Of a stretch of 64,000 bases of DNA, positions 6,645-64,000 are shown in pieces (within the stretch, counting starts at the first letter, position 1; each line of letters opens with the position of its first letter). The notes beneath the pieces were generated by a model, which saw only the letters and a list, made by a program, of their open reading frames with translations, made no database searches and had not been told where the DNA came from. Made by a program: the position numbers and the translations under genes. Source of the DNA: a virus; IMG/VR virus record IMGVR_UViG_3300045988_183127, one strand, 5' to 3'.

Positions 6645-6842
6645 ATAATTAGTTCTCCTTTTGTTTAGTTATATTTTTAATATGACAGAAAAAATGAATC
6701 ATTATTTTACATAAAATAATTGATGTGTGTTAAAATAAGACAGCAACTAAATGTAAATGCCTTTTATTTATTAAAATATCCCGTTTTTGTGTTCTTCTAA
6801 GCACTTTATTGGGTATACTATGCCTTCACTTGTAAAAAAATA

Positions 6843-8953: not shown

Positions 8954-8965
8954 AAAAATCTCCTC

Positions 8966-10276: not shown

Positions 10277-10305
10277 ATATTTTCCTCCAACCTTTCTAAT
10301 ATATA

Positions 10306-10315
10306 TATGACAGAT
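10306..10315 (-). promoter_or_regulatory. TCTGTCATAT box (representative type B with second element TTTTTATGTAAA 16-17 nt upstream on the gene strand)
   Basis: 31 nt upstream of CPBP gene start; distal element at 10327-10340 preceded by hairpin TACCGCTG...CAGCGGTA. Confidence 0.6.
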
Positions 10316-17751: not shown

Positions 17752-18507
17752 CTATGAGCATAACTTCTTAAGGTTATTCCTCATACCGGCTGACTCAAAC
17801 TGGAAAACATTCTTAGTTCTTCCTTTTGCATATACTTCTTTGTATACCTTATCAGCTTTAGGACCCTCTAATGGAATATTCATTACATCAATTACTTCTC
17901 CTGTATCTCTCTGAATCATTCTGAGTGTGTCAGTAATAATTGTAAGAGTTTTTAATCCAAGAAAATCCATTTTTAATAATCCATTAGCTTCGCACTGAAT
18001 CATGTCCATTTCTGTAGTTTTAATTCCCTTTTTTCCATCTCTAATAGGAATATAATCAGTAACATCATTACTATCATAAATAATAACACCTGCGGCATGT
18101 TGTCCGTATGTCGTAAGCATACCTTCACAATGAGCTGCAATATTAAGAATAGAAATAGCATCTGGATTACTATTATATTCATCCTTTAAGAAATCTAACA
18201 AAGAAATGCTGTCCTGAATATTAATGCCTAATTCATCAACCTTATTAGTATCTTTCATGCCAACAATATCTTCAAAATTAGTTGCTTTAGCAGGCACTTT
18301 CTTACGAATCTGATCTCCTAAAGATAAGAATTTCTTTTCATCATCATAAGCTTTCTTTCCATAATATCTTGCAGCATCTCTGATAGCACCTTTAGCCTGC
18401 TGTCTTGATTCTGTAATAATTCCAACAACAGCTTCACTACCATATTTAGCTCTTACATACTCAATTGTCTTTTCTCTTACTCCAAGAGCAAGATCGCTAT
18501 CGATATC
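17752..18507 (-). CDS. DnaE-like polymerase N-terminal gene, exon 2
   Basis: begins DIDSDLALGVREKTIEYVRAKYG...AKGAIRDAARYY, ends FQFESAGMRNNLKKLCS*; track start is a TTG inside the intron. Confidence 0.8.
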   Translation of the reverse strand, partial: DIDSDLALGVREKTIEYVRAKYGSEAVVGIITESRQQAKGAIRDAARYYGKKAYDDEKKFLSLGDQIRKKVPAKATNFEDIVGMKDTNKVDELGINIQDSISLLDFLKDEYNSNPDAISILNIAAHCEGMLTTYGQHAAGVIIYDSNDVTDYIPIRDGKKGIKTTEMDMIQCEANGLLKMDFLGLKTLTIITDTLRMIQRDTGEVIDVMNIPLEGPKADKVYKEVYAKGRTKNVFQFESAGMRNNLKKLCS

Positions 18508-18932
18508 CAAATATACCCCTACTTTCGTAGTACTTTAACACTTGTATAAGTGGGATTAGACTATATCTCAATATAATATTGTTAATATTATATTTCAACG
18601 CACTTCCAACTGTAACCATTCTCAGTTGTACTCCTTAAAAAGGATAGTCGTTACACTTTAAAATAAATAATATTATATACGAACAATTTTTTATTTATAT
18701 AATATTATTTATAATCTTAGCACGGTATCGCCTGCTATCCTTCAATATCTTTTATATAAAAATATTAGGACCGTAGGTTCTCTTACGAAGCTGCTTCGTC
18801 TATGGGTTAAGCTATATATCCTGTTGTGACACTTTATATAGCAGTCTTATTCAACTTCTACCGTTAGCACTTAATAATAAAATATTAAGCACACCTCTGA
18901 GTTAGAGTCCACGCTGAACGCCCAATATATTT
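18508..18932 (-). ncRNA. putative group I self-splicing intron (ORF-less, ~425 nt) in the DnaE gene
   Basis: interrupts the conserved ERVSMP|DIDxD motif; exon 1 ends with U, intron ends with G; GC-rich structured-looking sequence with stops in all frames. Confidence 0.6.
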
Positions 18933-20726
18933 AGGCATACTTACTCTTTCTGGATTTAAGAATCGTTCAAAAATCAGATTATACTTAAATGGATCAATTC
19001 CGGTAATACCAAGTAAATATGTAACCAATGAACCGGCACCTGAACCTCTTCCAATGCCTATTCCAATTCCGGTATTATAATTGTGAGCCTTAACATACTC
19101 TTTTGCACCTTCAATTGTTAAAGGTACTTCTGATAGTTTATCCATAGGTACTAATCCACAAATTCTTCCATATTCCAAGAAGTCCTTTACAATTAAATGA
19201 TAATCGGCAAAGCCCATCTGAATGATAATATTAAGTTCGTATTCCATTCGTTTCTGATGTTCTTCATCCCATCCTTTTCCGTTAGGATATCTCCAATTAA
19301 TTCCCTTAATTGCTTCAGATCTTAATAATTCGTTTGAGTCCTTATTCTTATCAAATACTGGATAATGATTAGATTTTTCTGGAATATAAGCACATCTTTT
19401 CCCAATTACATTTAAGTTATTAAGTGCTTCTGCAACCTGATCATCTGTTAATATAGCTGATAAAGCCTGAGCAAGTTCGTAAGGTGTCTTTACATATAAT
19501 TCTTTATCTGATTCCGACTCACTTATCTTAATAAATCTTAAAAATTTAGCTACATTACGCATATCAATACTTCTATCAGAATTATCTGCCATATGTGCAT
19601 CATTAGCAGCAACTAATGGGATATTATGCTTCCTTGCTAACTGAGCTAACACAGGATATGTCCTGCTTTCCATTTCAAGTCCATGATTCTGAACTTCAAT
19701 GTAATAATTACCTGCTCCAAAAATTTCCTGATAAAAAAGCATTGTCTTTTCTGCTTCAGACATTAATTCTATTGGACTTTTCTTTAATGATTCATAATGC
19801 TGTATCTTATTTTCATGATTAATGTATTCCTCTACCTTAAGACTTATATCCTTTAACTCGGCTTTCTTAGCATTAACTAATTTTCTGACATTAGGAATTT
19901 TATCTTTAGCTTCCAGAATTTTATTATTTATCTCCTCATATTCATTAATCAGTTTAATAAGCTCTGGATCATCATCATTTAAACACTTCCTTGCATCTCT
20001 TAATTTTCTTGAGATCTGTGTCCTTTCTGATTTAAGTTCCTTGGAATCACGAATATTAATCAATTCATCTAAATCTGCCGATACCCTTTCAAATTCATCT
20101 TTAGCTGAAAGATATTCTTTATCATCAGGACTTATACAATCACGTATCACTAGCTCGTCTTTTTCAGTAGTATGCTGCTGTGCTTTTCTTTCTCTGTTAA
20201 TCATTTTATCCAAAACATCATCTGATAATAATTGCAGAGCTGGTGCACCCGAAACGCAAGCAGAAGTTGCTATTATATCACCGTTAAAGTTATATTTCTT
20301 TAAATCTGATATTGTAATAACAGGCTTTCCCATTCTTTTTTCAGAAGCCTTAGAATTTAACTTATCAATAATATGCTTGCCTCTTTCTGAAGTGGCTAAC
20401 ATAATAATATGGCCAATCTGTTCATTTATCTTAAATGGTGGCACTTCAATATAAGCCTCTACGCCATAAATGATATTAAATGGATGTTCCTCAGTACTTA
20501 TTTTCTTAGCGTAATCAATACATGTTTGCATTGCTGAAAATGATGCATGGTCCGTAACAGCAAATTTAGTATATCCTGCATTAAATGCAGCATCTAAATA
20601 ACTTTTAGGTTCATCTACGGCATCAAACAAAGAGCCTCCTGGATGGTTATGTTCACACACTGTAACTCCTGATTCAATAACCTTTTTTGTTAATTCTCCA
20701 ATTTTTACATGTTCAAACATTGACAT
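18933..20726 (-). CDS. DnaE-like polymerase N-terminal gene, exon 1 (PHP domain, palm)
   Basis: ends [40 protein letters not shown]; track ORF then reads 14 intron codons ([15 protein letters not shown]) to a stop. Confidence 0.8.
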
Positions 20727-21989: not shown

Positions 21990-22121
21990 AATGAAAAATC
22001 TCCTTTTTTTATTTTATTCAAATAAAATATGACAGAAAAATTAAAACAAAATAGGATTAAAGCATATACATGCCTTAACCCTACTTTTTAAATTAATTAT
22101 AGAGAATTCTGTTAATATCAA

Positions 22122-24714: not shown

Positions 24715-25278
24715 TCAAAAATATCTCGAATAAAATAAATCAATCTGATGATACAAATATTGCAAATCCTTATCGTTAGTTATTAAAAAATCATATTCTT
24801 TTGAATTTTTATATGCATCAAATTCCTCTCTTTCACTCTCTAAGCGTATTCGCAAAGTATCAGGATTATCTCCTCTTAGAAGTCCTCTTTTAATTATTTT
24901 ATCCTCAGCCAAATCAACATATACGCAAATTAAATTAAACAAATTATGCTTATTATGCTCTTTTAACCATTTAACGCCATCTGGATTTATAATGTATACA
25001 CATGTATTTGATGGCAAAGCTTCTAATGCAGCACAATATTCTATTCCAGTTTTATTATTTTTTGTATAAGCTATGATTGTTTTTTCTTTTAAAACATTGC
25101 TCATTTCTTCCTTTGAAATAAATATATGTTCTACACCATTTGTCTCATATTCTCTTTTTGGTCTGGTTGTCATTGAAACAACTGAAGGAATTCCATATTT
25201 TTCATTTAATACTTTTGCGACTGTATCTTTGCCACTTGATGTCTTTCCTATAACTGCAATTATTGTCTTTTTATCCAT
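24715..25278 (-). CDS. P-loop kinase, probably phage-type dNMP kinase
   Basis: P-loop IIAVIGKTSSGKDTVAKVL (GKxxSGKDT as in T4 gp1-like dNMP kinases); 187 aa. Confidence 0.5.
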   Translation of the reverse strand: MDKKTIIAVIGKTSSGKDTVAKVLNEKYGIPSVVSMTTRPKREYETNGVEHIFISKEEMSNVLKEKTIIAYTKNNKTGIEYCAALEALPSNTCVYIINPDGVKWLKEHNKHNLFNLICVYVDLAEDKIIKRGLLRGDNPDTLRIRLESEREEFDAYKNSKEYDFLITNDKDLQYLYHQIDLFYSRYF

Positions 25279-26785: not shown

Positions 26786-27670
26786 TTATTTTGTTTGATA
26801 AAGAAGATATGACAGAAAATTATTTACATTAGAATTTAAATTGTTATTTCTTATTACTAAAATATTTCTGATAACAATTATGAAAAATATAATGCTCATT
26901 ATGATCAGACAAATATTTTGTAACATAACAGGCATAAAAGAGTACAATACACTACTTGCATTAACTCCAATATGAATTAAAATAGAGGGCAATAAATTAT
27001 CTGTTTTTATATATACATAGGCTAATATAATACCGAAAATAAATGCATAAGTGCTTTGAATAATATTAAAATGCACTAATCCAAAAACGAAAGCTGATAT
27101 ATAAATTGAGCTTACATCTGGTTTCTTAAAGAATTTGTTTTGCTTTATTATTTTTGTAATACCGTATCTAAATATTAATTCTTCAACAACTGGCGTAATA
27201 ACACCTGTTATTAAGAGTACTTGAAGCCAATTTCCGGTTACAGCAACATTCATTAAAGAATTATATGAGTTAGAAACTAAATTATTAGGTAAGGAATCTA
27301 TTACCACAGAAGCTAAAAAATTCATAATAATGCCTGTTAAAATAAATGTCTTGACATCTTTTAATGATAATTTTGAAATAAATATGATTGATTTATTAAC
27401 TTTATATTCTTTAAGCACAACAAACCCAAGTATTATAATGTCAGAAACAAATAATGCAGGCATAATTAATTTACTAAGCATACTAAGATAACTATATGAA
27501 AGTAAATTACCTGTTTCTATATATACATATAAATTATCATACCATTGTGAATCAGAAAACAATTTAAAAATAAATACACCCAATGTACATACAGTCTGAG
27601 TAATAAGAAAAGCAAATATTATTCCAATAATCTTTGTAATTTGTTTAATCATTATTTTGTTGACCTCCAT
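26786..27670 (-). CDS. CPBP (CAAX/Abi) family intramembrane metalloprotease, second copy
   Basis: multi-TM; EELIFRYG, FGLVHFNI, HIGVNAS. Confidence 0.7.
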   Translation of the reverse strand: MEVNKIMIKQITKIIGIIFAFLITQTVCTLGVFIFKLFSDSQWYDNLYVYIETGNLLSYSYLSMLSKLIMPALFVSDIIILGFVVLKEYKVNKSIIFISKLSLKDVKTFILTGIIMNFLASVVIDSLPNNLVSNSYNSLMNVAVTGNWLQVLLITGVITPVVEELIFRYGITKIIKQNKFFKKPDVSSIYISAFVFGLVHFNIIQSTYAFIFGIILAYVYIKTDNLLPSILIHIGVNASSVLYSFMPVMLQNICLIIMSIIFFIIVIRNILVIRNNNLNSNVNNFLSYLLYQTK

Positions 27671-30977: not shown

Positions 30978-31202
30978 AAAATATCTCCTTTATTATTTTG
31001 ATAAAGAAAATATGACAGAAAAAATATTCAAGAGTAACAATAATTCCATCTTGGAATTTAATATCAATATTCACAGCGCTTCTTATTTAATTAACTTAGC
31101 TTTAAATTAGTTTCTTTATGCGATATTGCTTTATTTTCAAGGCCTTTATTATAAAAATGACAGGCTGATTATACTTCAACCTGTCCTTAAAATTATATAT
31201 TT

Positions 31203-32777
31203 TTACTTAGTAGAATTCTTTTCTGACTTAGACACTTTCTCAGGAACATTCTTTACAGTTACCTTAATCTCCGGGTCAACATCTTCTGGAATGCCTGTAA
31301 AGTTCACATTCTTTGTTGTCTTGGCATCATATGTATTAGCCTTCATTACTTCTGTAAGGTCAAAACCAGTTGTTTCCTTAACAGATTCAATTGTCTTTGC
31401 AAGTACTGATGGTACATTACTGCTAAATGAACCTACTCCGGTTTCACCATTACCACTGTCAATAATAGTTACCTTATCAATGGCTTCTAATGGCTTTGCA
31501 ATAGCTCCTGCCATCTCTGGAAGTACTTTGATAATCATTTCAGTCATGGCAGCCTTACCATACTTAGCCATTGCATCTGCTTTCTTCTCCATAGCTTCAG
31601 CTTCAGCTAATCCTTTTGCCTTAATACTTTCAGCATCAGCAACACCTTTTGCCTTAATACTCTCTGCTTCTGCAAAGCCCTGTGCCTTTACTGCTTCAGC
31701 TTCCTGTTCCTTAGCAAATCTGTCTGCTTCTGCCTGTGATTTCTTAGCTTCAGCCTGCTTCTGAATTTCAAACTGCTTTGCTTCTGCTTCCTTCTGTCTC
31801 TGATAAAGTTCTGCATCTGCCTTTTGCTGTGCTGCATACTTTTCAGCTTCGGCCTGCTTACGGATATCAGCATCAAGTGTTTTTTCCTTAACAGTGATTT
31901 CCTTTTCTCTTAATTCAATTTCCTTTTCCTGCTTTGCAATATTAGCATTGGCAGTAGTGATTTCAATTGTCTTTCTCTGTTCCTGCTGCTGGATTTCATA
32001 TGCCGCATCAGCTTCAGCCTTCTTAACATCTGCTGCTCTCTTTAATTCCTGCTTCTTAATCTCAAGTTCATTATTTCTTTCTGCAATAGCTGTCTCAGCT
32101 TCAATTCTTGCATCATTAGCCTGCTTTTCAGCATTAGCCTTTGCAACTGCAATATCTCTTTCTGATTCTGCTCTTGATATCTGTGCTGACTTACTGATAC
32201 TTACAACCCTGTCAATACCAAGGTTTTCAATAACATTACCTTCATCTGTAACATTCTGAACATTAAAGCTTACAATTTCAAGACCCATTCTTTCCATATC
32301 AGGAGCAGCATTCTCCTGTACCTTTTCAGCAAATAACTTTCTGTCCTGTACAATATCCTCAAGCTTCATCTGTCCTATAATTTCACGGACATTACCTTCA
32401 AGTACATCTACAACTGATTCTCTGATATAATCTGAATTTTTATTAAGGAAGTTACTTGCAGCCTTTCCAAGCATTTCAGGTGATGAACCAATCTTAATCT
32501 TTACAGCAGAATCAATATTAACATTAATATACTCATTTGTTGGTACTGATTCCTTTGTCTTTACATCAACAGAAATCATCTTTAAATCAAGCTTATCTAC
32601 TCTCTGTAAAAATGGTATCTTAAGTGATGACCTTCCGATAACATACTTAGGTGTCTTTCTAAGTCCTGATACAATAAGTGCCTTGTCTGTCGGAGCCTTA
32701 ATATAACTTGCAAATAATAATGCAATTAATACTACAACCACCGCTACTACAATTCCAATCGTTACTTCAATTCCCAT
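31203..32777 (-). CDS. SPFH/band-7 flotillin-like protein
   Basis: N-terminal TM, SPFH region, long Ala/Glu/Lys-rich coiled-coil tail; 524 aa. Confidence 0.75.
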   Translation of the reverse strand: MGIEVTIGIVVAVVVVLIALLFASYIKAPTDKALIVSGLRKTPKYVIGRSSLKIPFLQRVDKLDLKMISVDVKTKESVPTNEYINVNIDSAVKIKIGSSPEMLGKAASNFLNKNSDYIRESVVDVLEGNVREIIGQMKLEDIVQDRKLFAEKVQENAAPDMERMGLEIVSFNVQNVTDEGNVIENLGIDRVVSISKSAQISRAESERDIAVAKANAEKQANDARIEAETAIAERNNELEIKKQELKRAADVKKAEADAAYEIQQQEQRKTIEITTANANIAKQEKEIELREKEITVKEKTLDADIRKQAEAEKYAAQQKADAELYQRQKEAEAKQFEIQKQAEAKKSQAEADRFAKEQEAEAVKAQGFAEAESIKAKGVADAESIKAKGLAEAEAMEKKADAMAKYGKAAMTEMIIKVLPEMAGAIAKPLEAIDKVTIIDSGNGETGVGSFSSNVPSVLAKTIESVKETTGFDLTEVMKANTYDAKTTKNVNFTGIPEDVDPEIKVTVKNVPEKVSKSEKNSTK

Positions 32778-48679: not shown

Positions 48680-48784
48680 AATGTTTCTCCATTAATATAT
48701 TGTTCATTATATATATGACAGAGAAAAAAAGTCTTTATGCGATTAAACATAAAGACTTTTACAATAGTTTGATAAAGTAAAGTA

Positions 48785-50820: not shown

Positions 50821-50904
50821 CAAAATAAAAAACAGGGCAATATTGATATGATACCTCTTAAGTAGACATGGTAAATAACCAAAATCTATTTAAGGGGTAT
50901 TTTT

Positions 50905-51588
50905 ATGTCCAGAAAATCTAAGTATTCTATAGAACAGCGAGTACAAGCATGTGAAGACTATCACAATGGAACTCGTAGTTTAGAAGAAATATGTATAGCT
51001 CTCGGAACTACCAGAAAGAAAACTATCCGTGAGTGGTTAAAAAAATATGAGAAGTACGGAGTATCTGCTTTTCAGGAAAAGTCATATAACAAAAGTTATA
51101 CAAAAGAATTTAAAATTCAAGTAGTGGAAGAATATATAAGTGGTTATGGTTCACTAGAGGAACTGATTGTAAAATATGATATTTCTTCTACAACCCAACT
51201 ACGAAAATGGATTTCAGTGTATAATGCCAATAGAGAACTTAGGGACTATTGTCCAAAACCGGAGGTCTATATGGCAGAAGCAAGAAGAAAAACAAGCATT
51301 GAAGAACGCAAAGAAATCGTAAAGTATTGTATCGGACATAATCGTAATTATAAAGAAACTGCAAGTGCTTATGATGTCTCATACAATCAAGTCTATTCTT
51401 GGGTAAAAAAGTATGATGCACTAGGTGAAGAAGGATTAACAGATAAGCGTGGATGTCATAAAACGGATGAAGAGGTAGACGAATTGGAACGTCTTCGTCG
51501 GGAAAATGTACGTTTAAAGAAGCAACTCAAAGAAAAGGATATGTTAACGGAACTGTTAAAAAAAGTACAGGAATTCGAAAGGATGTGA
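50905..51588 (+). CDS. IS3-family transposase OrfA (HTH, leucine zipper)
   Basis: 227 aa; slippery A AAA AAG at 51558-51564 near its end. Confidence 0.8.
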   Translation: MSRKSKYSIEQRVQACEDYHNGTRSLEEICIALGTTRKKTIREWLKKYEKYGVSAFQEKSYNKSYTKEFKIQVVEEYISGYGSLEELIVKYDISSTTQLRKWISVYNANRELRDYCPKPEVYMAEARRKTSIEERKEIVKYCIGHNRNYKETASAYDVSYNQVYSWVKKYDALGEEGLTDKRGCHKTDEEVDELERLRRENVRLKKQLKEKDMLTELLKKVQEFERM

Positions 51589-52550
51589 GGCTCGGAAAAC
51601 TTCGCTATAATTCGGAATTTATAGCAATAAAGTTTTTCTATGAAACAAAGAACTGGAGTATTAATTGGATGTGTAAACAGCTCGAAATATCAAGAGCTGC
51701 CTATTATAAGTGGTTGAATCGTGAGATACCTGAACAGGAAGCAGAAAATATGAAGTTGGCAGAACTTATAAAGGAGTACGATGAGCGCTTTAATCACATC
51801 CTGGGTTATAGAAGAATGACCTCTTGGATTAATCACTTTAACCATACTGATTATAAACCGAAGAGAGTACATCGAATTATGAAGAAGTTGGGTATTCATT
51901 CAGTCATTAGACGAAAGCAGAAAAAATATACTTCTTCGACACCGGAAGCAGTAGCTGAAAATAGATTAGGCAGAGACTTTTATGCAACTGCACCAAATGA
52001 GAAGTGGACAACTGATGTAACAGAGTTTAAGATTCCAGGTGAGAAAAAGAAACTTTATTTAAGTGCCATTCTTGACTTATATGATAGATACCCTGTTGCG
52101 TATGTTATCAGCACGAGAAATAATAATGAGCTCGTATTTAAAACCTTTGATAAAGCTATTGCCGCAAATCCTGAAGCTAAACCATTATTTCATAGTGATA
52201 GAGGTTTTCAGTATACAAGTAAGGTATTTCAAATGAAACTTAAGGAACATAAGATAGAACAATCTATGTCCAGAGTTGGACATTGTATAGATAATGGACC
52301 TACTGAAGGATTCTGGGGTATCATAAAATCAGAAATGTATCAGATGTACGATATAACAGATGAATCTTCATTAAGATTTGCAATAAAAGATTATATTAGA
52401 TTCTACAGTGAAGAACGACCACAAGACAGGTATCATTGCAAAACGCCACTAGAGGTAAGAGCTGAAGCATTATCTACAGCAACACCACAACAGTATCTTA
52501 TTCCTAAAAATAAACGAATTGAAAAATATAAAGAGAAATGGTGTGCATAG
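51585..52550 (+). CDS. IS3-family transposase OrfB (DDE/rve integrase core)
   Basis: 321 aa with conserved DDE context (WTTDVTEF, HSDRGFQYTS, DNGPTEGFWGIIKSE). Confidence 0.85.
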   Translation: MRLGKLRYNSEFIAIKFFYETKNWSINWMCKQLEISRAAYYKWLNREIPEQEAENMKLAELIKEYDERFNHILGYRRMTSWINHFNHTDYKPKRVHRIMKKLGIHSVIRRKQKKYTSSTPEAVAENRLGRDFYATAPNEKWTTDVTEFKIPGEKKKLYLSAILDLYDRYPVAYVISTRNNNELVFKTFDKAIAANPEAKPLFHSDRGFQYTSKVFQMKLKEHKIEQSMSRVGHCIDNGPTEGFWGIIKSEMYQMYDITDESSLRFAIKDYIRFYSEERPQDRYHCKTPLEVRAEALSTATPQQYLIPKNKRIEKYKEKWCA

Positions 52551-52667
52551 AAAAACGACCGTACACTTTATACGGTCGTTTAGCAACACTTCATTTTAGA
52601 TATTTAACCTGTCTACTTGACAGGGGGCATATCATATATACCCTGTTTTAAATCATTAATTTGCATC

Positions 52668-54641: not shown

Positions 54642-55391
54642 TTAAGATTTTTTATTTTTAGCTTTTTTAATTATGCTCCAATCCTCTTCTGTGAAATATG
54701 GATACATATCATAGACTGCAAATTCTCCATCTTTTTTAGAAATTGTATATTCTAAAACAATATGAAGTCCATGACAGTCAAAAGGAATATCATAATTTGT
54801 ACCTTTTACAATTCCTTTTCCTATAACCGTATTAGATACTATATCTATAACTAAACGATTATGTCTTCTGTCGTTGTAATAAATATCTCTATCCTCACAC
54901 CAGTTCTGAATTTTAGAAATAATAGAGGTATTATTTGAAGCAATTAAAACTCTCTCTAATGCTTCAGATGCACTTTCTAATGAATCAAACCATGTAGGAT
55001 GGAAGGTACCATTCTTAGCGCCTTTAATTCCTTTCTTTTCTTTTGTAGCTTCAGAAATTTTATTTATAGCCCATGAAATTTCTGGAGCTATATGTTGTAG
55101 CACATGAGGAGTATGTTCCTCAACATAATCATTTGCTCCTGATCTGGTTTCAACCAAATCATTAGCTTCGAAATTGAAAAGATATTCTTCTGCATCATAA
55201 AATTTTTCGATATATGATGCTACATTAAAAAAATCCTTTTTATATGTGCCAGCCTTTTTGTCTGACATAATTTCATTTAATTCTGCCATAGTGCAGCGTT
55301 CCTTTCTTCGCAATGTGCGAACAAAAAAAGCTACCCTAAAAAGTCTATAAAGACATTTTAAGGTAGCTAAACAAATAGTTCTAATTTTCAA
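54642..55391 (-). CDS. hypothetical protein
   Basis: 249-aa ORF. Confidence 0.45.
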   Translation of the reverse strand: MKIRTICLATLKCLYRLFRVAFFVRTLRRKERCTMAELNEIMSDKKAGTYKKDFFNVASYIEKFYDAEEYLFNFEANDLVETRSGANDYVEEHTPHVLQHIAPEISWAINKISEATKEKKGIKGAKNGTFHPTWFDSLESASEALERVLIASNNTSIISKIQNWCEDRDIYYNDRRHNRLVIDIVSNTVIGKGIVKGTNYDIPFDCHGLHIVLEYTISKKDGEFAVYDMYPYFTEEDWSIIKKAKNKKS

Positions 55392-55397
55392 AATTAT

Positions 55398-55685
55398 TTA
55401 ATCTGGATTATATGGATATTCTATAAAGAATTCATATTCCGGATTGTCGCTCATTAAGCGGGCAATATTTTCTGCTTTGGATACATAATATGTATGTCTG
55501 TTATCCAACCCATCCTTTTCATTAAGCATTTCGCACTTAGCTCGTGTAACAATCTTATGAAACTGATTCCCGGATAAATCTACAATTATTTCGTTATCTC
55601 TATAGAAATAATCAATATTCTTTTTTTCAAGAATTTTGTTAATATAAGGAATTAATTCTTCTTTTGCCTTCTTAAAATGTCTCAT
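55398..55685 (-). CDS. hypothetical protein
   Basis: start reassigned to MRHFKKAKEEL (SD AAGGGAG); the track N-terminus would contain the promoter box at 55740. Confidence 0.4.
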   Translation of the reverse strand: MRHFKKAKEELIPYINKILEKKNIDYFYRDNEIIVDLSGNQFHKIVTRAKCEMLNEKDGLDNRHTYYVSKAENIARLMSDNPEYEFFIEYPYNPD

Positions 55686-55770
55686 ATATAAGACTCCCTT
55701 CTTGGAGTTATTCTCCATTAAATTTATTGATAAAAAATATATGACAGAAAAAACAGTATATGTTAAAGAT

Positions 55771-58104
55771 TTATCCAAACTGTTGTCTTTTTATTAAAAT
55801 ATTATTATATATTTCATCCCAGTATTTATTTATAGCATCAATTTCTTGTTGATCAGTTAATGCGTTCTTATCGATAATAACATCATCAAGACTTTTTATA
55901 ACAGTATTAGCAGTTTTATAATCTGAAATATTAGCATTCTCAGCTTCTTTTAAAGCATCATATGCTTTTTTGTAACAAAAACTGGCATTTTCATAATTAG
56001 GAAAATCGATTTGAAAAAAATCTTTTTTACCAGAATTATAATTACATTTTTTCCCTTCCCAGTCAATATAATGCTCATAAATAGTTTCAGGTTTCTCAAA
56101 TTCCTTATTATCTAAATTCTGGTGCAAATATTCATTAAACTGCTTCCATATTTCTCCACATATTGCTGAACCATTATCAAAATTTTTAGGAATATCATAT
56201 CCGGTCCATATACATGTTGTGTAATATGGTGTATATGCACATAGCCAAGAGTCCTTGTTATCATTCGTTGTTCCAGTTTTTCCTGCACAAATCTGATTAT
56301 CTATTTGATAATTTTTGACGTATCCTTCTGTAAAATTTGAAATTAAACAATCTGTCATCATATAAGCGGTGCCTTTTTTATATACTTGAATATCTTCTTT
56401 ATTTTGATATATTTCTTCATTTTGACGCAACATATGTTTGATACATGTATTATTATTGTATTTACCATTATTAGCTAATACATTGTATGCTTTAGTCATG
56501 TTTTCTACTGTCACCCCATTTGTAAAACCACCTATGGCAATTGCAGCATTATTATTATCTTCATATGAAATATTATAAAAGTGCATTTTATTTAAATACT
56601 CTAAACAATTATTTATTCCAACATTCATTAATGTTTTAACAGCCGTTGTATTGACTGATTGTAATAAAGCTGTTCTTACTGAAATATTGCCTCTGTAATA
56701 TCCATCATGATTTTTAGGCTGGTATTTACCCTCAAGTGGAGAATCCAAAATCATAGATGATGGATGATAGTCTAAAATATCAAAAGCCGGAGCATAATCT
56801 AATATTGGTTTAATGGAAGAGCCTGGTTGTCTAGGAGATTGATATGCTCTATTTATATATTCATTATCTTCTTGTCCACCTATAATTGCTCTAACATATC
56901 CAGTTTCATTATCAATACACATGGATGATGTTTGAAGAAGATGCCGCCCATCCTCGGATAAGCTGTTATCATATTGTGATAAAACATTTTTTGAAATTTG
57001 TAATAGCTCAAGCTGCTTATCTTTATCTATTGAAGTATATATCCTGTATCCTCCAGTTAATATTTCTTCTTTGTACTTAGAGTATATTCTATTATATTGA
57101 TTAATATAATCTTGCTCATCTTCTGAAGAATCAAAAAGGTATTTAAAATTAAATCCATTCATTTCCATAAGATATTCAATAGAACATTTAAGTGCATATG
57201 AAAATTCATAAGATGTTGGTAAATCAGATGTTTCTTTATATAAAATTAAATCAAGAGGATCTTCTAATGCTTCATTGTATTGTTTTTCTGTAATTATTTT
57301 CTGATTATACATTGTATTAAGGACTTGATTTCTTTTACATATTGCTAATTCATAATTTGTTTCAGGATTATATTTTGTAGGGGCATTTGAAATACCTATT
57401 AACATTGCGGCCTGAGATATTGTTACATCAGATGCATCACATCCAAAATAATATTTACAAGCTGCCTGAATTCCGTAACAATTGCTGCCATAGAAATTAG
57501 AGTTTAAATACATTTCAAGTATTTGTTCTTTAGAATATGATTTTTCCATTTCAAGTGATGCTATTATTTCAGTAAGTTTTCTATCTATTGTTTTGTCTGA
57601 ATTTTTTATAACAATATTTTTTACAACTTGTTGTGTGATTGTACTGCCGCCCTGAGTTATTTTCCCTTTATTCTTTATATAAGCCAAAGAAGCTCGTAAC
57701 AATGCTTTAGCATCAATACCTTTATGAGTATAGAAATTCTTATCTTCCACAGCAATATATCCTTGTATTATATAATCACTGACATCGCTGATATTAACAT
57801 ATTCATAAGAACCGTTAATATTAGCTGCCATTAATGTGCCATCATCATAATAAAAATATGTATTCAGTTCTTTATTAAATTCATCTTGGTTCATATTTTG
57901 TAATGACTCATATGCATTTTCCTGTGCCAATTTGAATTTACTGTAAAATTTAATATAAAATACTGATAATGATATTAAGGATAATAATATGACTATCATA
58001 ATAATCAATATAAAAATTTTAAATATGATTAAAAGATGATTTTTCCTTTTTTTTAGTGGAATATTTTTATCATCATTATAAAGTGGTTGTTTTTTAGAAC
58101 TCAT
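55771..58104 (-). CDS. class A penicillin-binding protein (GT51 transglycosylase + transpeptidase)
   Basis: N-terminal TM; GT51 motifs AVEDKNFYTHKGID, GGSTITQQVVKN; transpeptidase SSIKP (SxxK), SVN, KTGT. Confidence 0.8.
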   Translation of the reverse strand: MSSKKQPLYNDDKNIPLKKRKNHLLIIFKIFILIIMIVILLSLISLSVFYIKFYSKFKLAQENAYESLQNMNQDEFNKELNTYFYYDDGTLMAANINGSYEYVNISDVSDYIIQGYIAVEDKNFYTHKGIDAKALLRASLAYIKNKGKITQGGSTITQQVVKNIVIKNSDKTIDRKLTEIIASLEMEKSYSKEQILEMYLNSNFYGSNCYGIQAACKYYFGCDASDVTISQAAMLIGISNAPTKYNPETNYELAICKRNQVLNTMYNQKIITEKQYNEALEDPLDLILYKETSDLPTSYEFSYALKCSIEYLMEMNGFNFKYLFDSSEDEQDYINQYNRIYSKYKEEILTGGYRIYTSIDKDKQLELLQISKNVLSQYDNSLSEDGRHLLQTSSMCIDNETGYVRAIIGGQEDNEYINRAYQSPRQPGSSIKPILDYAPAFDILDYHPSSMILDSPLEGKYQPKNHDGYYRGNISVRTALLQSVNTTAVKTLMNVGINNCLEYLNKMHFYNISYEDNNNAAIAIGGFTNGVTVENMTKAYNVLANNGKYNNNTCIKHMLRQNEEIYQNKEDIQVYKKGTAYMMTDCLISNFTEGYVKNYQIDNQICAGKTGTTNDNKDSWLCAYTPYYTTCIWTGYDIPKNFDNGSAICGEIWKQFNEYLHQNLDNKEFEKPETIYEHYIDWEGKKCNYNSGKKDFFQIDFPNYENASFCYKKAYDALKEAENANISDYKTANTVIKSLDDVIIDKNALTDQQEIDAINKYWDEIYNNILIKRQQFG

Positions 58105-58382
58105 AATTATTCTCCTTTATATTTATTTACACAATAAATATGACAGAGAATAACAAAAAGCTCCCACCATTAAGGTGAGAGCTATAATCAAAGTTGCTAG
58201 TAGAATTGTAAAATTCTATTAAAGTGTATTTTTACGACAAAATTACCGGCTTTAACAAAAGTGCTAGTCTTTGAGGAGACATATATGTATGCCTAATATA
58301 TACCGACAATATTTTATCACATTGTAAATTATAATACAATATTGATTTAATCATTATATGACAGATTTTTGACTGCAAATTT

Positions 58383-59516
58383 TTACATAATTTTATTTTT
58401 GCCTGTTCTTTTAGCTTTATACAAATTTTTATCTGCTGCATCAAATAAATCGTGAACGGTATTATTTTTCTTATATTCTGTTATTCCTCCAGAGAAAGTA
58501 AATTGCTGCGGAATATTCTCATATTTAATATTGTTGAATTTAATTCTGATATCGTTAATTATATTATATGCCTCAGTATATTCATAATCTGCAAATAATA
58601 TTCCGAATTCTTCGCCTCCATATCTGGCGACAAAAATATTTGATTGGTTAATATTTTGAAGTTCCTTAGCTAAATTAATTAAAACAGTATTTCCAAATTC
58701 ATGTCCATATGTATCGTTAACTGATTTAAAATCATCTATATCTATTATACAAAAATAAAGTTTCTTCTTATATGATATCCATTTCTTTGTTGTATTAAAA
58801 AGAGACCTATAATTATCTAATCGAGTTAATCCATCTTGTGAAATTTCTTTTAATAATTGCGCATTTCTATTTTCAGATAAAACCAGTTTAAGTTCTTTTT
58901 CTTTCTCATATTTAATAACAAGTCTCGAATAAATATATGCAAATATTGTTATGATACATGATAAAAACATATATATTAAATAATTTGGTGGTAACTTATT
59001 TAATTCAGAGATTGATGATAATGAGATTGTAATTATTTCAAATTGACTTATCAAAAATAATTGCCAATTAACCTTGTTACTCCCATATACAATACACATA
59101 AAAATTGGGCAGGCTATTAATGTATATAATACCGGATAATTATAATGAATGATAATTGAAACCACTATAATTAAAGTTAAAATATACAAAGGCATGGCTT
59201 CATATATTTCTGGTATAATATTATCTTGATATTTTCTTATGATTTGTCTACCGGTAAACCATATTATTAAATTAGATGTAGTAGGTGTAAATACATTCAA
59301 TATAATATAAGATAATATATTTATTGTTTGTTTTTCTATTATTATATGTATTGGTATAAATAATAATTCAAAAACAAATATTGTGATTATTATAAGAAGG
59401 TTAATAGCCATTATTTTATTTTGAAATTTATTATACAAATATGCGTATAAACTGGTTTGTTTTTCTGTATGCTCTATTGTATTATCTTGTATTTTAATTT
59501 TTTCTATTGTTTTCAT
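58383..59516 (-). CDS. membrane-bound diguanylate cyclase (GGDEF domain)
   Basis: ~6 TM N-terminal domain; DDFKSVNDTYGHEFGN and RYGGEEFGILF (GGEEF active site). Confidence 0.85.
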   Translation of the reverse strand: MKTIEKIKIQDNTIEHTEKQTSLYAYLYNKFQNKIMAINLLIIITIFVFELLFIPIHIIIEKQTINILSYIILNVFTPTTSNLIIWFTGRQIIRKYQDNIIPEIYEAMPLYILTLIIVVSIIIHYNYPVLYTLIACPIFMCIVYGSNKVNWQLFLISQFEIITISLSSISELNKLPPNYLIYMFLSCIITIFAYIYSRLVIKYEKEKELKLVLSENRNAQLLKEISQDGLTRLDNYRSLFNTTKKWISYKKKLYFCIIDIDDFKSVNDTYGHEFGNTVLINLAKELQNINQSNIFVARYGGEEFGILFADYEYTEAYNIINDIRIKFNNIKYENIPQQFTFSGGITEYKKNNTVHDLFDAADKNLYKAKRTGKNKIM

Positions 59517-59655
59517 AATAATATTTATTAATCACTGAATCCCTTATCTTCAGATAAGGGAAGAAGTAATTCTCCTTCCTGCTATATTGCATCTTTTTGT
59601 TTCTAATATATGAGCATTTTACAAAGTTATTATCATTTTTTTATTAAATCTAACA

Positions 59656-60870
59656 TTACTCTGTTGCATCATAAAATTCTTTCTCCGGATACAATTCGTT
59701 CAAATTTTCTGCTAAATCAATTTCTTCAAGTAAAGCATTATAGTTCATTTTAATTTTCTCAGATTTAATTAAACTTAACATAGCATCTGCAATTACCGGA
59801 TCAAATTGAGTACTTTTACCTTTTTCAAGCTCATTGATTACAATTATTGAATCTAAATGTTTTCTATACACTCTGTCACTTGTCATTGCGTCAAAGGCAT
59901 CTGCCACAGAAATAATCCTTGCAATATAAGGTATTTGTTCTCCCTTTAAGCCATCTGGGTATCCTTTTCCATCATATCTTTCATGATGATATTTTGCTCC
60001 CAAATCAATGTCCTTAAGCATTGACATATCTTTTAAGATATTTCCGCCTATTACTGTGTGGTTCTTCATTACTTGGTACTCTTCATTTGTTAATTTCCCT
60101 GGTTTATTTAATATGCTATCCGGAATTCCTAGTTTTCCTATATCATGCAATAGTGCTATTGAATGAATATCTTCAATTTCATTTTTATTCATTCCTAATT
60201 TATATGCTAATAAGGCTGTATAATCTGCTACTCTGGTTGAATGGCCTTTGGTGTAATTATCTCTGGCATCGATAATATTTGCTATAGTTGTAACTGTTTG
60301 GAGAGACATTTTATTAATTTGTTCTATTTGATTTATTATTGTTTGTGTATTTTGCAAATTTAGGTCTGTATTTCTTTTATAAAACTTTGAAACAATATAT
60401 GCTGCTGCAAAGCATAAAATAATTATTGCAAGTTGTATCTCCATGTCTTTGCCACCTGATTTATCAATTTTATTATATGTCTTAATAAATATTGCCGTAA
60501 TATTCAACACTGTTGAAAATAAACCGGTTACTATAATTAAAGTTGGGTCATAATATAAAATTAAAAGCAGGATAATTGGGAATATATAAGTAAAACATAA
60601 AACAGTATTTCCTGTAAATAAGGTGAATGTATACATTATTAAAAACGAGAATGTTACAAAATATTTTAAAAATAGCCAGTTTTTATTATAAATAAAAACC
60701 AACCACCCTGTTAAATTCGGGATACTGATTAATATAGCAAATATTGCAAAATATGGTGGTGATATAGCATGTTTTAACATTTCACCAAAATAAATGCCTA
60801 ATAGTGTTATTGTTATTACTGACCAACCACATAAAAGTGATGTATTTAATCTTTCTTGTTCTCTATCCAT
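59656..60870 (-). CDS. membrane-bound HD-GYP c-di-GMP phosphodiesterase
   Basis: N-terminal TM domain; ALLHDIGKLGIP (HD) and HHERYDGKGYPDGLKG (HD-GYP). Confidence 0.85.
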   Translation of the reverse strand: MDREQERLNTSLLCGWSVITITLLGIYFGEMLKHAISPPYFAIFAILISIPNLTGWLVFIYNKNWLFLKYFVTFSFLIMYTFTLFTGNTVLCFTYIFPIILLLILYYDPTLIIVTGLFSTVLNITAIFIKTYNKIDKSGGKDMEIQLAIIILCFAAAYIVSKFYKRNTDLNLQNTQTIINQIEQINKMSLQTVTTIANIIDARDNYTKGHSTRVADYTALLAYKLGMNKNEIEDIHSIALLHDIGKLGIPDSILNKPGKLTNEEYQVMKNHTVIGGNILKDMSMLKDIDLGAKYHHERYDGKGYPDGLKGEQIPYIARIISVADAFDAMTSDRVYRKHLDSIIVINELEKGKSTQFDPVIADAMLSLIKSEKIKMNYNALLEEIDLAENLNELYPEKEFYDATE

Positions 60871-61093
60871 AGGTCCTCCTTATAGTCAAAAAAAGTTATA
60901 TTAATATATATATGACAGATAATATTAAAAAAAGAGTTCAACGTGACTAAGTAAGATCATGCTTACCGTTACCGCTGAACCCTTTTTATAAAAAATATAA
61001 TTAGCTCCTTTATTTTTAGCTAATAATAATATGACAGAATTAAAATAATTTTAACAAAAAAATCAGTGCCATAAAGACACTGATTTTAATTAT

Positions 61094-61672
61094 TTATGCT
61101 ATTTTTCTTTTATATATTGTAGAAAAATATCTTGGTATAATAGAATAATTTTCTATGATCTGATTATGAACATATTCTTCAGTTCTATTATCATTAAAAT
61201 TATTCTCCCAATTTTCCAAATACGACTCTCCTTTTGAAGTAAGCTTTTTTATCTCATACATATTAGTTCCATCGTGATGAGAACATGTAATATATAAATG
61301 GCCATTTGCATCATGTATACGAAAATAGTCACAATCCTTTGTTGCTTTACAGAATGCATCATCAAAATCTGAAAAAACATACGCTGTCTGATATTTTCCA
61401 TTCCATCTCTGAGTGAATCCAAAAATAATCCACTTTCCTTTATAATTAAAGAAATTCTTTAGATTTGAATGTTCATCTTCCCAATTAATGCGATCATTAA
61501 AGTATATTCTATCCCAAATTTCATCATCAGAAGGAATACAGCCATTTTCTTCAATTAAATCTTCTTTGGTAAAATCGTAGTTATCAGATAAATCATAATT
61601 GTCATAAATGATGTTCTTTTCCTTTTCTATAACAACAATATCTTTTTTCATAGTTTCCCTTTCTAAATCCAT
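61094..61672 (-). CDS. hypothetical protein
   Basis: 192-aa ORF overlapping upstream gene by 10 nt. Confidence 0.45.
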   Translation of the reverse strand: MDLERETMKKDIVVIEKEKNIIYDNYDLSDNYDFTKEDLIEENGCIPSDDEIWDRIYFNDRINWEDEHSNLKNFFNYKGKWIIFGFTQRWNGKYQTAYVFSDFDDAFCKATKDCDYFRIHDANGHLYITCSHHDGTNMYEIKKLTSKGESYLENWENNFNDNRTEEYVHNQIIENYSIIPRYFSTIYKRKIA

Positions 61673-62400
61673 GCAGGAGTTACCTTTGTTTCAGGCAAAT
61701 TATTAAGCCATTCAATTACATCCTGAGGCACTTCTTCTATTTTCCATGAAGATCCATATTTATAACCACATACAGGGCATGGTCTGCCAATGAATCCAAG
61801 CTTATGATCTTGATATGAAATCCAGTTTCTTGTCTTATATTCTGTGTTTGTATAGCCTAAACAATCTTTTTCCTTTAATTCATAAGCATTCTTATAAGGA
61901 ATTTCTTCATCATCATAAATCTCAATGGAATATTTCATATTTGTATATGCGGTTTCTTCCATTGTTGGTTCAAATGTTTCTCCATTTTTTAAACAATTCA
62001 AAGCTCTCTTTTCAGCATCTTCCTTTTTTTGATAAGCTTCCTTTGTTAATACCCATTTTTCAATTTTAACTTTATCCTGAATATGTTCTATCCATCCAAG
62101 TTCTTTCATATGTTCACAATAAGGACGCATATCATTTAAATGCCACTTATTCCAGATATCACAAAACTTTTTAAGCATTTTGGTGGTCCATTCATCAGTT
62201 GGAATGCCTTCTCTAATTTCATCAACACACTGGCCAGCAGAACCAAGGCAGTTACCATTTGCTAATGGAGCAATTACACCAGAAATACTTAAACATTTCC
62301 CATCATATTCAATTTTAGCAAAAGCATTTTTACTTACTTTATTTCCGGTAGTTGTATATACCTTACATTTACATGGATTAATAATTTTATTAATAGTCAT
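61663..62400 (-). CDS. hypothetical Cys-rich protein
   Basis: 245-aa ORF; CPVCGY and other Cys pairs; box 35 nt upstream. Confidence 0.45.
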   Translation of the reverse strand: MTINKIINPCKCKVYTTTGNKVSKNAFAKIEYDGKCLSISGVIAPLANGNCLGSAGQCVDEIREGIPTDEWTTKMLKKFCDIWNKWHLNDMRPYCEHMKELGWIEHIQDKVKIEKWVLTKEAYQKKEDAEKRALNCLKNGETFEPTMEETAYTNMKYSIEIYDDEEIPYKNAYELKEKDCLGYTNTEYKTRNWISYQDHKLGFIGRPCPVCGYKYGSSWKIEEVPQDVIEWLNNLPETKVTPAWI

Positions 62401-62448
62401 ATCTTTTTCTCCTTTAAATTTTTGTTATTTAAAATATGACAGAAAAAA

Positions 62449-62468
62449 AGCAGGAGATATCTCCTGCT
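62449..62468 (-). terminator. intrinsic terminator fused to promoter box
   Basis: AGCAGGAGATATCTCCTGCT then a T-run on the gene strand, abutting CTGTCATAT. Confidence 0.6.
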
Positions 62469-62818
62469 TTTTATGTATAAATTTAAAAATACTAAATATG
62501 ACCATTAAGTGCTGATAATAATTCAGCCTTATCATCTTCTGTAAGCATATTAACCATCTGTTTTAATACATGTTCTTTTTTTATTCCTTTAAGGTGCATA
62601 TTCCAAGCCTTGTCAAGTATGATTTTAAACAGCGGTGATGGATTAAGTCCAAGTTCAATTAAATCATCAGCCGTGATATGTGGTTCAGATGTTTGCTAAT
62701 AAGATATTTCTTTGTCTTTCCATAGTCGGTAAATAATTCCTGCTTTCTTCATTATTCTTATCTATATTATCACAAAGCTCATCATCCAAGCAATCATACA
62801 AATCCATATACTCTCTCC

Positions 62819-64000
62819 TTACAGGTCTAAATCAAAATCATCATCTTTAATATCATTATGTATTTCTACCTGTCTTACATAATCTTTATCATCCTTTGCT
62901 TTAAAATTATATACTGGCTTAATTATATTAACTATTTCTACTGTATCTTTAATATTTTCAATTATTTCATCCATAGGTTTATATACAAACGGAGATTCAT
63001 CTATAGTACTTAAAGCAACACTGGTGGTATATATTCCTTTCATACTATCTTCAAAATCTTTAAGATTTATTACATCTTTTGCTTTACTTCTACTAAGTAT
63101 TCTTCCTGCTCCATGTGGGGCGGAATAATTCCAGTCAGGATTACCTTTACCGATACATATTAAAGAGCCATCACGCATATTCATAGGGATAATAACTTCT
63201 TCCCCTTTAAGTGCTGATATAGCTCCTTTTCTTAATATCATTACTTTTAAGTCTATATAATTATGAGTTGTATTAAAACTGTGGTCTATTGTTAAATTCA
63301 TATGTTCTATAATTTCAGATGCTATTGCACATCTATTTCTTTTTGCATATTCCTGAGCAATCTTCATATCATGTAGGTAATCTTTCATATCCTGTCCTTC
63401 AAGATACGCTAATTCTTTGTTTACAGAAGGTATTGTATTATTGAATTTATCCTTAAGAGCCTGTAATGCTTTAGAAATCTCTTTTTCTTTACCGGCACTT
63501 TTATATTCTGTTATGAGTTTTTTGCTTAAATCTTTAAACTTACCACCAATATTTTTCTCTTTTAATCTTTCATAAGCTAGATTCTGATAATAGTTACAAA
63601 TTTCAATCCCTAAGTGTCTGCTTCCTGTGTGTATTACAAGCCATAAATTATCATCCTTATCTTTATCAACCTCTATAAAATGGTTTCCCCCGCCCAATGT
63701 GCCTATAGATTTATTAGCATTATCTATGTTTATAGGGGCAATTATATCTTCTAATTCCGAATAAATATTTTTAGCTTCTTTATGAATATTACAACCACTT
63801 GGTACATATTTGGTAATTACTTCATCTAATTTTTTATAATCTATTTTTTTTTCTTTTAACTTAATAGCAAGCATTCCACAGCCAATATCTACTCCTACCA
63901 GATTAGGTACTATCTTATTATTAATAGTCATAGTAGTACCTATAACACACCCTTTTCCTGCATGTGTATCCGGCATTATTCTAATTGTATTATCCTTAGC
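62819..64000 (-). CDS. rtcB: RtcB RNA ligase (N-terminus beyond window end)
   Basis: MPDTHAGKGCVIGTTM, GGGNHFIEVD, PHGAGR; reading frame open to position 64000. Confidence 0.85.
   Translation of the reverse strand, partial: AKDNTIRIMPDTHAGKGCVIGTTMTINNKIVPNLVGVDIGCGMLAIKLKEKKIDYKKLDEVITKYVPSGCNIHKEAKNIYSELEDIIAPINIDNANKSIGTLGGGNHFIEVDKDKDDNLWLVIHTGSRHLGIEICNYYQNLAYERLKEKNIGGKFKDLSKKLITEYKSAGKEKEISKALQALKDKFNNTIPSVNKELAYLEGQDMKDYLHDMKIAQEYAKRNRCAIASEIIEHMNLTIDHSFNTTHNYIDLKVMILRKGAISALKGEEVIIPMNMRDGSLICIGKGNPDWNYSAPHGAGRILSRSKAKDVINLKDFEDSMKGIYTTSVALSTIDESPFVYKPMDEIIENIKDTVEIVNIIKPVYNFKAKDDKDYVRQVEIHNDIKDDDFDLDL

Follow-up and report, generated by a model that had tools for sequence, protein, structure and literature searches.

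A predicted c-di-GMP synthesis and degradation operon on a giant plasmid-like element of human-gut Bacillota

Enzymes acting on cyclic di-guanosine monophosphate (c-di-GMP) are known from conjugative elements, e.g. DgcK and DgcL of the SXT/R391 integrative and conjugative elements (ICEs). Co-transcribed pairs of a diguanylate cyclase and a phosphodiesterase are represented by DosC-DosP (DgcO-PdeO) of E. coli, and the HD-GYP protein RpfG of Xanthomonas has GGDEF partners with which it interacts physically. In Clostridia, c-di-GMP balances flagellar motility against pili, adhesion, aggregation and sporulation. The present study concerns two adjacent genes, coding for a membrane-bound HD-GYP phosphodiesterase and a membrane-bound GGDEF cyclase, in IMG/VR virus record IMGVR_UViG_3300045988_183127; the whole stretch of 64,000 nt analysed is referred to as the window. 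With moderate confidence, the pair is interpreted as a two-gene c-di-GMP operon through which a giant, plasmid-like and conjugative element of human-gut Bacillota would reset the c-di-GMP level of its host.

The locus resembles the plasmid- and ICE-borne enzymes (e.g. DgcK/DgcL) as signalling cargo of a conjugative element that would reset host c-di-GMP, and the PLSDB plasmids carrying GGDEF or HD-GYP homologues include a 352-kb plasmid of Ruminococcus albus 7 which also encodes the closest coupling protein. It differs from them in that cyclase and HD-GYP enzyme are combined in one predicted operon, each with six transmembrane (TM) helices and under a promoter-like box of the element's own, and in its far larger, undescribed carrier. 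As with DosC-DosP and the RpfG partners, opposing enzymes derived from one transcript or complex would define a set-point rather than an on/off switch; DosP, however, is of the EAL type, and DosC as well as DosP are soluble haem sensors. The fused TM-HD-GYP-GGDEF proteins of gut Clostridia (P0139, P0141, P0147 and others) share the TM and HD-GYP domains at 45–50 % identity over more than 90 % of the query, whereas their GGDEF domain has the motif GGDEF, does not match DxFKxxNDxxGHxxG, and contrasts with a separate cyclase possessing its own TM domain in the window. The structurally solved HD-GYP proteins PmGH (4mcw), PA4781 (4r8z), DvhD (9rbz) and V-cGAP3 (5z7c) agree in fold and in all metal-site residues of the HD, HHE and GYP motifs; their N-terminal domain is soluble, in contrast to the six-helix TM bundle encoded here. 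The Hypr GGDEF enzymes (GacA, Bd0367) likewise vary at the base-reading position (PMC6456294), there with Ser or Thr and GGDEF, here with Asn and GGEEF.

With respect to the carrier, comparison is best made with the "Hodor" megaplasmids of gut Bacillota, which were pulled from a huge-phage collection and are common in viral but nearly absent from plasmid databases (PMC12934698). Shared traits are the human gut habitat, a size above 300 kb and genes for ParA/ParB, VirB4 and VirD4 (PMC12934698), the VirB4-like protein of the present element being that of a sister lineage; likewise, the present element has no nucleotide match in PLSDB, yet is found in IMG/VR. It is nevertheless not a Hodor: these have 44–47 % GC, Rep_3, a MOBH-like relaxase and sortase modules (PMC12934698), whereas the present element, with 27–32 % GC, has a relaxase of the Mob_Pre type, encodes a DnaE, RecA and sigma factor of its own and bears the TCTGTCATAT box.

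Gene pair and transcription unit

Both genes are located on the minus strand, that of the phosphodiesterase at 59656–60870 (404 aa) and that of the cyclase at 58383–59516 (377 aa), and were assigned from Pfam matches, structure models and homologue alignments. They are arranged head-to-tail with a spacer of 139 nt (59517–59655); sizes, order and spacing had been described identically in an initial annotation made from the sequence alone. The cyclase covers the full GGDEF profile (PF00990, E=6.8e-33, residues 227–375), and the phosphodiesterase matches HD_5 of the HD-GYP family (PF13487, E=1.2e-38, residues 196–359) as well as HD (PF01966, 2.2e-20). The motifs reported in the same annotation, intact GGEEF and DxFKxxNDxxGH in the cyclase and HD and HHE..DGxGYP in the phosphodiesterase, were read directly, as DIDDFKSVNDTYGH and RYGGEEF in the former and as GHSTRV, LLHDIGK, KNH, HHERYDGKGYP and VADAFD in the latter.

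Structure models built from family alignments with AlphaFold reached pLDDT values of 88.8 (cyclase) and 84.6 (HD-GYP protein). The cyclase model superposes on solved GGDEF domains with a TM-score of up to 0.85 on the target. With Foldseek, the HD-GYP model matched PA4781 (rmsd 1.9 Å over 205 columns, TM-score 0.81 on the target) as well as PmGH and DvhD (E ≤1e-10). N-terminal to the catalytic domain, both proteins possess about six hydrophobic helices, in agreement with the predicted ~6 TM helices of the 377-aa protein and the predicted N-terminal TM domain of the 404-aa protein. They span residues ~11–164 of the phosphodiesterase, followed by a long linker helix and the catalytic domain (196–359), and residues ~35–201 of the cyclase, followed by a linker helix and the GGDEF domain (227–375). 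No Pfam family was found for either TM domain, and the fold search of PDB returned matches to the catalytic domains only, except that the cyclase model loosely matched ImcA, a membrane cyclase, over its full length (TM-score 0.49). In the TM domain of the phosphodiesterase, 15 positions are invariant across 30 homologues, as would be expected of a working sensor. A common sensor domain for the two proteins was considered and rejected (hhalign probability of 2.3 % between the TM domains).

The pair and the downstream gene for a class A penicillin-binding protein (PBP) are kept together in a second lineage (lineage B, locus L003), with amino acid identities of 57 % for the cyclase and 61 % for the HD-GYP protein. 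Here, the two genes overlap by 11 nt and the cyclase has an AAGAGG ribosome-binding site; an equivalent terminator hairpin is present upstream of the HD-GYP gene and a variant box, TATGTCATAT, takes the place of the proximal box, while a terminator (3852–3879 of L003), an exact TCTGTCATAT box and the PBP gene follow the pair. Copies that are ~98–99 % identical differ by 19–21 synonymous versus 1–2 non-synonymous codon changes in the HD-GYP gene and by 9 versus 1–4 in the cyclase gene, a pattern that shows both sequences to evolve under purifying selection. A "truncated" HD-GYP protein of 262 aa on a 463-kb scaffold results from a scaffolding gap; mutation was rejected as its cause, as a run of N is located at the break.

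Full-length relatives of the phosphodiesterase, including the TM domain (45–50 % identity), are abundant in gut Clostridia, and many of them are fused TM-HD-GYP-GGDEF proteins with a C-terminal GGDEF domain of a different lineage; linking both activities is thus a recurrent design. Relatives matching the cyclase over its full length (~35 % identity) are encoded on Clostridial chromosomes, one of them adjoining a flagellin gene.

The predicted transcription unit is framed by hairpins on the minus strand. A terminator-like hairpin with a 12-bp stem and T run (61059–61087) ends the upstream gene for a 192-aa protein and insulates the operon, and another one with a 10-bp stem including 6 GC pairs and a T run (58159–58183) closes the HD-GYP/GGDEF unit. 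Two minus-strand copies of the promoter-like box TCTGTCATAT precede the pair, a distal one (61029–61038), assigned from the motif count, and a proximal one (60910–60919) 40 nt upstream of the HD-GYP start; AAGGAGGA represents a ribosome-binding site just 5' of the HD-GYP ATG. The spacer, also read on the minus strand, contains a CCCTTATC/GATAAGGG hairpin lacking a T run, but neither terminator nor any of the 27 box copies of the window, as the initial annotation had noted in describing it as free of boxes. Downstream, further minus-strand copies are located 18 nt past the cyclase stop codon (58356–58365, with a TTATGTAAAA element upstream) and 34 nt upstream of the PBP start codon (58138–58147). 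Flanking terminators, boxes upstream of the HD-GYP gene and the absence of a terminator from the spacer support the single operon proposed in the initial annotation. We infer co-transcription from these signals, and the pair is most likely a selected, bicistronic unit.

The box preceding the pair belongs to the same promoter-like class as those of the element's replication and repair genes. With 27 copies in the window versus 0.28 expected, 25 of which are on the coding strand, the decamer TCTGTCATAT is strongly enriched, and the promoter initially placed at 60911 corresponds to its copy at 60910–60919. Its core, TGTCATAT, resembles an extended -10 element. Copies typically precede an AAAGGAG ribosome-binding site by 25–35 nt, and several directly follow a terminator (examples at 6680–6689, 10305–10314, 22027–22036, 31010–31019, 48713–48722, 58138–58147, 60910–60919 and 62434–62443); a subset has TTATGTAAAA ~18 nt upstream. 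The box is probably the element's own promoter and is perhaps read by the encoded sigma factor (7925–8953); it recurs in related loci and in two diverged lineages.

Active sites and the nucleotide concerned

The GGEEF loop of the cyclase (RYGGEEF, residues 298–304) is invariant in 22 family members, and the motif register aligns to PleD without gaps. D259, E302/E303 and K264 are likewise invariant and correspond to the PleD metal ligands D327 and E370 and to the transition-state lysine K332, PleD E370 being the central residue of the motif to which the acidic pair E302/E303 belongs. Among the phosphate-binding positions, K369 is kept (PleD K442), and PleD R446 is replaced by K373 (GKN versus GRN), a conservative exchange that represents the family consensus. 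From the guanine-binding pair, N267 is kept (PleD N335), and the position of PleD D344 is occupied by Asn276 (GHEFGN; alignment to DgcR, 6zxb), which had not been remarked on in the initial annotation. Asn267 and Lys369 are invariant across the family. The I-site register reads QSNI, and product inhibition of the cyclase is not expected because this sequence lacks the allosteric RxxD site.

In the phosphodiesterase, the metal ligands H210, H242-D243, H271, H295-H296-E297 and D324 as well as G303-Y304-P305 are present; the motif residues are invariant in 30 homologues, except for P305 (at least 90 %). The third-metal Glu of trinuclear enzymes (PmGH E185) aligns with Tyr206, and a two-metal site like that of PA4781 is for this reason more likely; the exchange is a subgroup trait and does not define the family.

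The Asn at the D344 position is common to the window cyclase, its lineage B counterpart and ~20 of the nearest full-length relatives, chromosomal ones included, and occurs in 3 of the 89 GGDEF motifs of loci from general genomes (GTDB). Reviews regard Asp344 of PleD as indispensable and see in it the switch of specificity in Hypr GGDEF enzymes (PMC7288161, PMC6456294). Ser in its place turns the latter into synthases of cyclic GMP-AMP (cGAMP), always in combination with GGDEF and never with GGEEF (PMC6456294). No product data on Asn variants of GGDEF cyclases were found in the literature. Because Asn replaces the guanine-reading Asp, the nucleotide formed is not certain, c-di-GMP being the most likely product.

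These exchanges raise the question of whether the pair makes and breaks another cyclic dinucleotide, such as 3'3'-cGAMP, as a messenger private to the element. The prevalence of Asn for the Watson-Crick-face Asp among the nearest relatives, in contrast to its rarity in the GTDB loci, and the precedent of the Ser-bearing Hypr enzymes would agree with this, as would the ranking of HD-GYP sequences in the PDB, where cGAMP-specific V-cGAP3 (1.4e-40) is marginally ahead of the c-di-GMP enzyme PmGH (1.7e-39), two scores that are equal within error. Asn, however, is as long as Asp and still able to accept the hydrogen bonds of guanine N1/N2, the GGEEF motif is never used by Hypr enzymes (PMC6456294), the same Asn family is chromosomally encoded in flagellated Clostridia, and in the structural ranking the HD-GYP model is nearest to the c-di-GMP enzymes PmGH, PA4781 and DvhD, with V-cGAP3 in tenth place. 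Another dinucleotide is accordingly judged distinctly unlikely, and there is but a slim chance of its more specific form, i.e. a channel of 3'3'-cGAMP or a mixed product that is insulated from host c-di-GMP and tied to an envelope module with the PBP.

The two substitutions at substrate-contacting positions would also fit a catalytically dead partner serving as receptor or scaffold, e.g. an Asn/Lys-variant GGDEF protein that binds the nucleotide or regulates the HD-GYP enzyme, for which the physical HD-GYP/GGDEF interactions of RpfG could provide a model. The family-wide invariance of GGEEF, both metal ligands, Asn267 and Lys369 and the strong purifying selection, which an active enzyme would show, render such a role very improbable. 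Two active enzymes are preferred, and the Clostridial cyclase subfamily represented here, in which the base-reading position is Asn, is worth following up alongside the element and its promoter box.

Carrier element and proposed role

The window has 28 % GC, no tRNA gene and almost all of its genes on one strand. Its coding capacity comprises RecA, RecJ, two UvrD helicases, a primase-type zinc ribbon, a 5'-3' exonuclease, a sigma-70 factor, a methylase, a guanylate kinase and RtcB as well as many ORFs without homologue, a gene content of phage-like appearance. The exact HD-GYP protein was detected in 348 assembly-collection blocks, 20 of which hold contigs of 0.2–1 Mb, and scaffolds bearing it have sizes of 812, 479, 463, 423 and 374 kb, all from human gut (L096–L105 among the related loci). 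At least three lineages were distinguished (PARP genes with ~70 % nucleotide identity), which have 27–32 % GC and are all enriched in the box core. A single-protein scan of GTDB genomes for the host of the element yielded no match, and a profile scan was dominated by generic GGDEF genes, with the best match in Clostridium minihomine at 33 %.

On the large scaffolds, genes for a coupling protein and a Mob_Pre relaxase are located 5–10 kb upstream of the pair. The relaxase and a NERD protein were reached in eight of the ten places shown and the 982-aa coupling protein of the VirD4/TraG type in five of the ten; the genes for PARP, HD-GYP, GGDEF and PBP follow in this order. Homologues of the coupling protein are present in 1103 PLSDB plasmids (814 predicted to be conjugative), are concentrated in Bacillota (Enterococcus, Staphylococcus, Clostridium) and, among the matches listed, are all classified as "VirD4-like, CD1115 family". 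In sister lineage C, the coupling protein of which is 67 % identical, PrgI, an 856-aa VirB4-like ATPase and a 1091-aa protein are encoded directly upstream of it. To the left of the window, at a distance of ~10 kb, genes for ParA and ParB_N were found (L007), and phrog_164 (ParA-like family) was matched at 2e-54. No capsid, portal, terminase, tail or lysis family was detected with PHROGs and Pfam in the ORFs of the window and 45 flanking ORFs (~90 kb). In total, inspection covered ~150 kb of a replicon with a size of 460 kb or more, and no Rep gene was seen in this portion.

According to the criterion applied to huge phages, partition and conjugation genes mark plasmids (PMC7162821), and the element is considered plasmid-like because it has both. 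The carrier family appears undescribed, giant (scaffolds of 0.2–0.8 Mb) and very prevalent in the human gut. A conjugative megaplasmid is regarded as the probable nature of the carrier and a huge phage or phage-plasmid as unlikely, the rest of the probability going to other kinds of element. The initial annotation had assumed a phage-like context and named host chromosome as the finding that would speak against it: the phage context was not upheld, given the lack of virion genes in the inspected sequence and the presence of coupling protein, Mob_Pre relaxase and ParA/ParB, yet the region is not ordinary host chromosome either. Its description of the c-di-GMP pair as unusual rested on the same context. 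With homologues in 2636 (GGDEF) and 626 (HD-GYP) PLSDB records, such genes are routine plasmid cargo; whereas a make-and-break pair would be unusual for a phage, it is ordinary for a megaplasmid. Viral databases are known to include gut megaplasmids (PMC12934698), and a prevalent giant element filed as viral is a further warning for gut virome catalogues.

Based on these features, the following scenario is proposed for a giant (about 0.4–0.8 Mb, 27–28 % GC) conjugative plasmid-like element of human-gut Bacillota. Transcription would start at the element's box or boxes upstream of the HD-GYP gene, proceed through the spacer into the GGDEF gene and end at the hairpin at 58183–58159. Both products would span the membrane several times and have their catalytic domains in the cytoplasm, the cyclase converting two GTP to c-di-GMP without a product-inhibition site and the HD-GYP enzyme hydrolysing c-di-GMP. 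Each enzyme may be gated by its own six-helix membrane domain; since the two are mutually unrelated, the nucleotide level set by the element should depend on two separate membrane or envelope cues. By imposing its own c-di-GMP level, the element would shift c-di-GMP-controlled host behaviour in favour of its retention or transfer, promoted cell contact being a plausible benefit for a Gram-positive conjugative element.

Several findings weigh against this scenario. With Asn276 and Lys373, activity of the cyclase on GTP is not guaranteed, and in the window no Shine-Dalgarno sequence is found close to its start codon. Rfam revealed no c-di-GMP riboswitch in the vicinity of the pair, in the rest of the window or in related loci totalling 130 kb, and, apart from HEARO RNAs elsewhere and one sub-threshold match, no other RNA family; nor was a PilZ protein detected in the window or the related loci, or any other effector beside the pair. 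The targets are therefore presumably those of the host, or else are encoded by parts of the element that were not seen. Only the sister lineage showed VirB4 and PrgI. A 95-kb copy is filed among the viral contigs of IMG/VR (UViG_3300029581_000240), and phage-type genes are present on the element, i.e. phrog_3205 (SPO1-like phages), YopX, a Dda-like helicase and RNA-repair genes.

The last two findings belong to the case for a huge phage or phage-plasmid, on which the pair would constitute an auxiliary module reprogramming biofilm formation, motility or cell-cycle signalling of the host or blocking superinfection via c-di-GMP-controlled receptors. The sharing of phrog_3205 with Herelleviridae, the genes for Lar, RtcB, CCA-adding enzyme and RlaP, the arrangement of genes in one-strand arrays in which every gene is equipped with a box and a terminator, the element's own sigma factor and split DnaE, the use of the same box before the pair and before replication genes, and a related cyclase on a 235-kb contig read as phage-like are also consistent with a phage. 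Set against these are the absence of any virion, packaging or lysis family from the ~150 kb, the coupling protein, relaxase and ParA/ParB, to which the sister lineage adds PrgI and VirB4, and the precedent of misfiled gut megaplasmids (PMC12934698). The nucleotide search of 55000–64000 yielded no match in 50,697 phage records; it also yielded none among the PLSDB plasmids, and the left-flank genes had no match in IMG/VR. A phage-borne module is considered quite unlikely, and the conjugative plasmid-like element remains the preferred carrier.

HD-GYP genes are found across jumbo phage groups, for which a counter-defence role has been proposed (PMC7824862). In line with the suggestion of the initial annotation that the pair could interfere with defence signalling, the HD-GYP enzyme might destroy the cyclic oligonucleotides by which CBASS and type III CRISPR systems of recipient cells signal alarm, and other conflict-type genes (PARP, PARG, Lar, NERD) are indeed present on the element. 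The enzyme, however, is membrane-anchored, with a conserved, sensor-like TM domain and 45–50 % identity to cellular proteins, and the presumably co-transcribed cyclase would be needless for a pure sponge or nuclease strategy. Moreover, both proteins are full-length relatives of membrane signalling proteins of gut Clostridia, and PADLOC returned no match for either of them, for the PBP or for the neighbouring proteins. The suggestion is unsupported by these results and appears barely plausible; resetting of host c-di-GMP is favoured instead.

Neighbouring genes and further observations

The class A PBP encoded next to the pair (55771–58104, minus strand, 777 aa, one TM anchor) was assigned from Pfam and motifs and is syntenic in both lineages. 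Its glycosyltransferase and transpeptidase motifs (EDKNFYTHKG, GGSTITQQ, SSIK, SVN, KTG) are intact. A bifunctional PBP would hardly be expected among the cargo of a mobile element, and its location beside the pair suggests an envelope-directed module. An ORF of 126 aa without homologue (55398–55778) overlaps the PBP end by 8 nt.

Between pair and PBP gene (58159–58365), the distance from the box to the strong terminator amounts to ~170 nt, which may represent a small RNA or a 16-codon ORF (MSPQRLALLLKPVILS); Rfam yielded a sub-threshold match only (RF02278, E=0.0011) for this interval. On the other side of the pair, all other copies diverge from the window at 61048, past the terminator and before the first box. 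Further upstream, the window harbours ORFs of 192 aa and 245 aa and RtcB, whereas the other copies have PARP; the RtcB block is found elsewhere without the pair (L010). The junction reflects either recombination or a join made in assembly, and the pair itself is unaffected.

L014, the above-mentioned 235-kb contig (JGI 3300035516), encodes at 8001–9104 a further member (35 % identity) of the family of Asn-variant TM-GGDEF cyclases. This contig has one-strand, mostly unannotated genes and was read as phage-like; it encodes Thg1 and an NAD-dependent ligase, and no HD-GYP gene adjoins the cyclase gene.

In the window, DnaE (DNA polymerase III alpha) is split into three ORFs (18885–20726, 17752–18510 and 10389–12074). 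The last two are 5.7 kb apart, with genes for a 5'-3' exonuclease, an RlaP-like nucleotidyltransferase and other proteins in between.

Other cargo at 9365–10276, 26786–27670, 31203–32777, 24715–25278 and 54642–55391 comprises two Rce1-like CAAX proteases, a flotillin/SPFH protein and a guanylate kinase as well as a 249-aa protein with a weak, below-cutoff match to the CdiA-CT RNase A-like family (E=4.6e-5). With respect to mobile DNA, an IS3-family insertion (50844–52633, with plus-strand ORFs at 50905–51588 and 51585–52550) is absent from the 98–99 % identical IMG/VR copy (L006), and IS605/TnpB copies are present on the element. HEARO RNAs (RF02033, 110–118 bits) adjoin RRXRR/HNH genes at 3961–4174 of L008 and 15002–15258 of L010.

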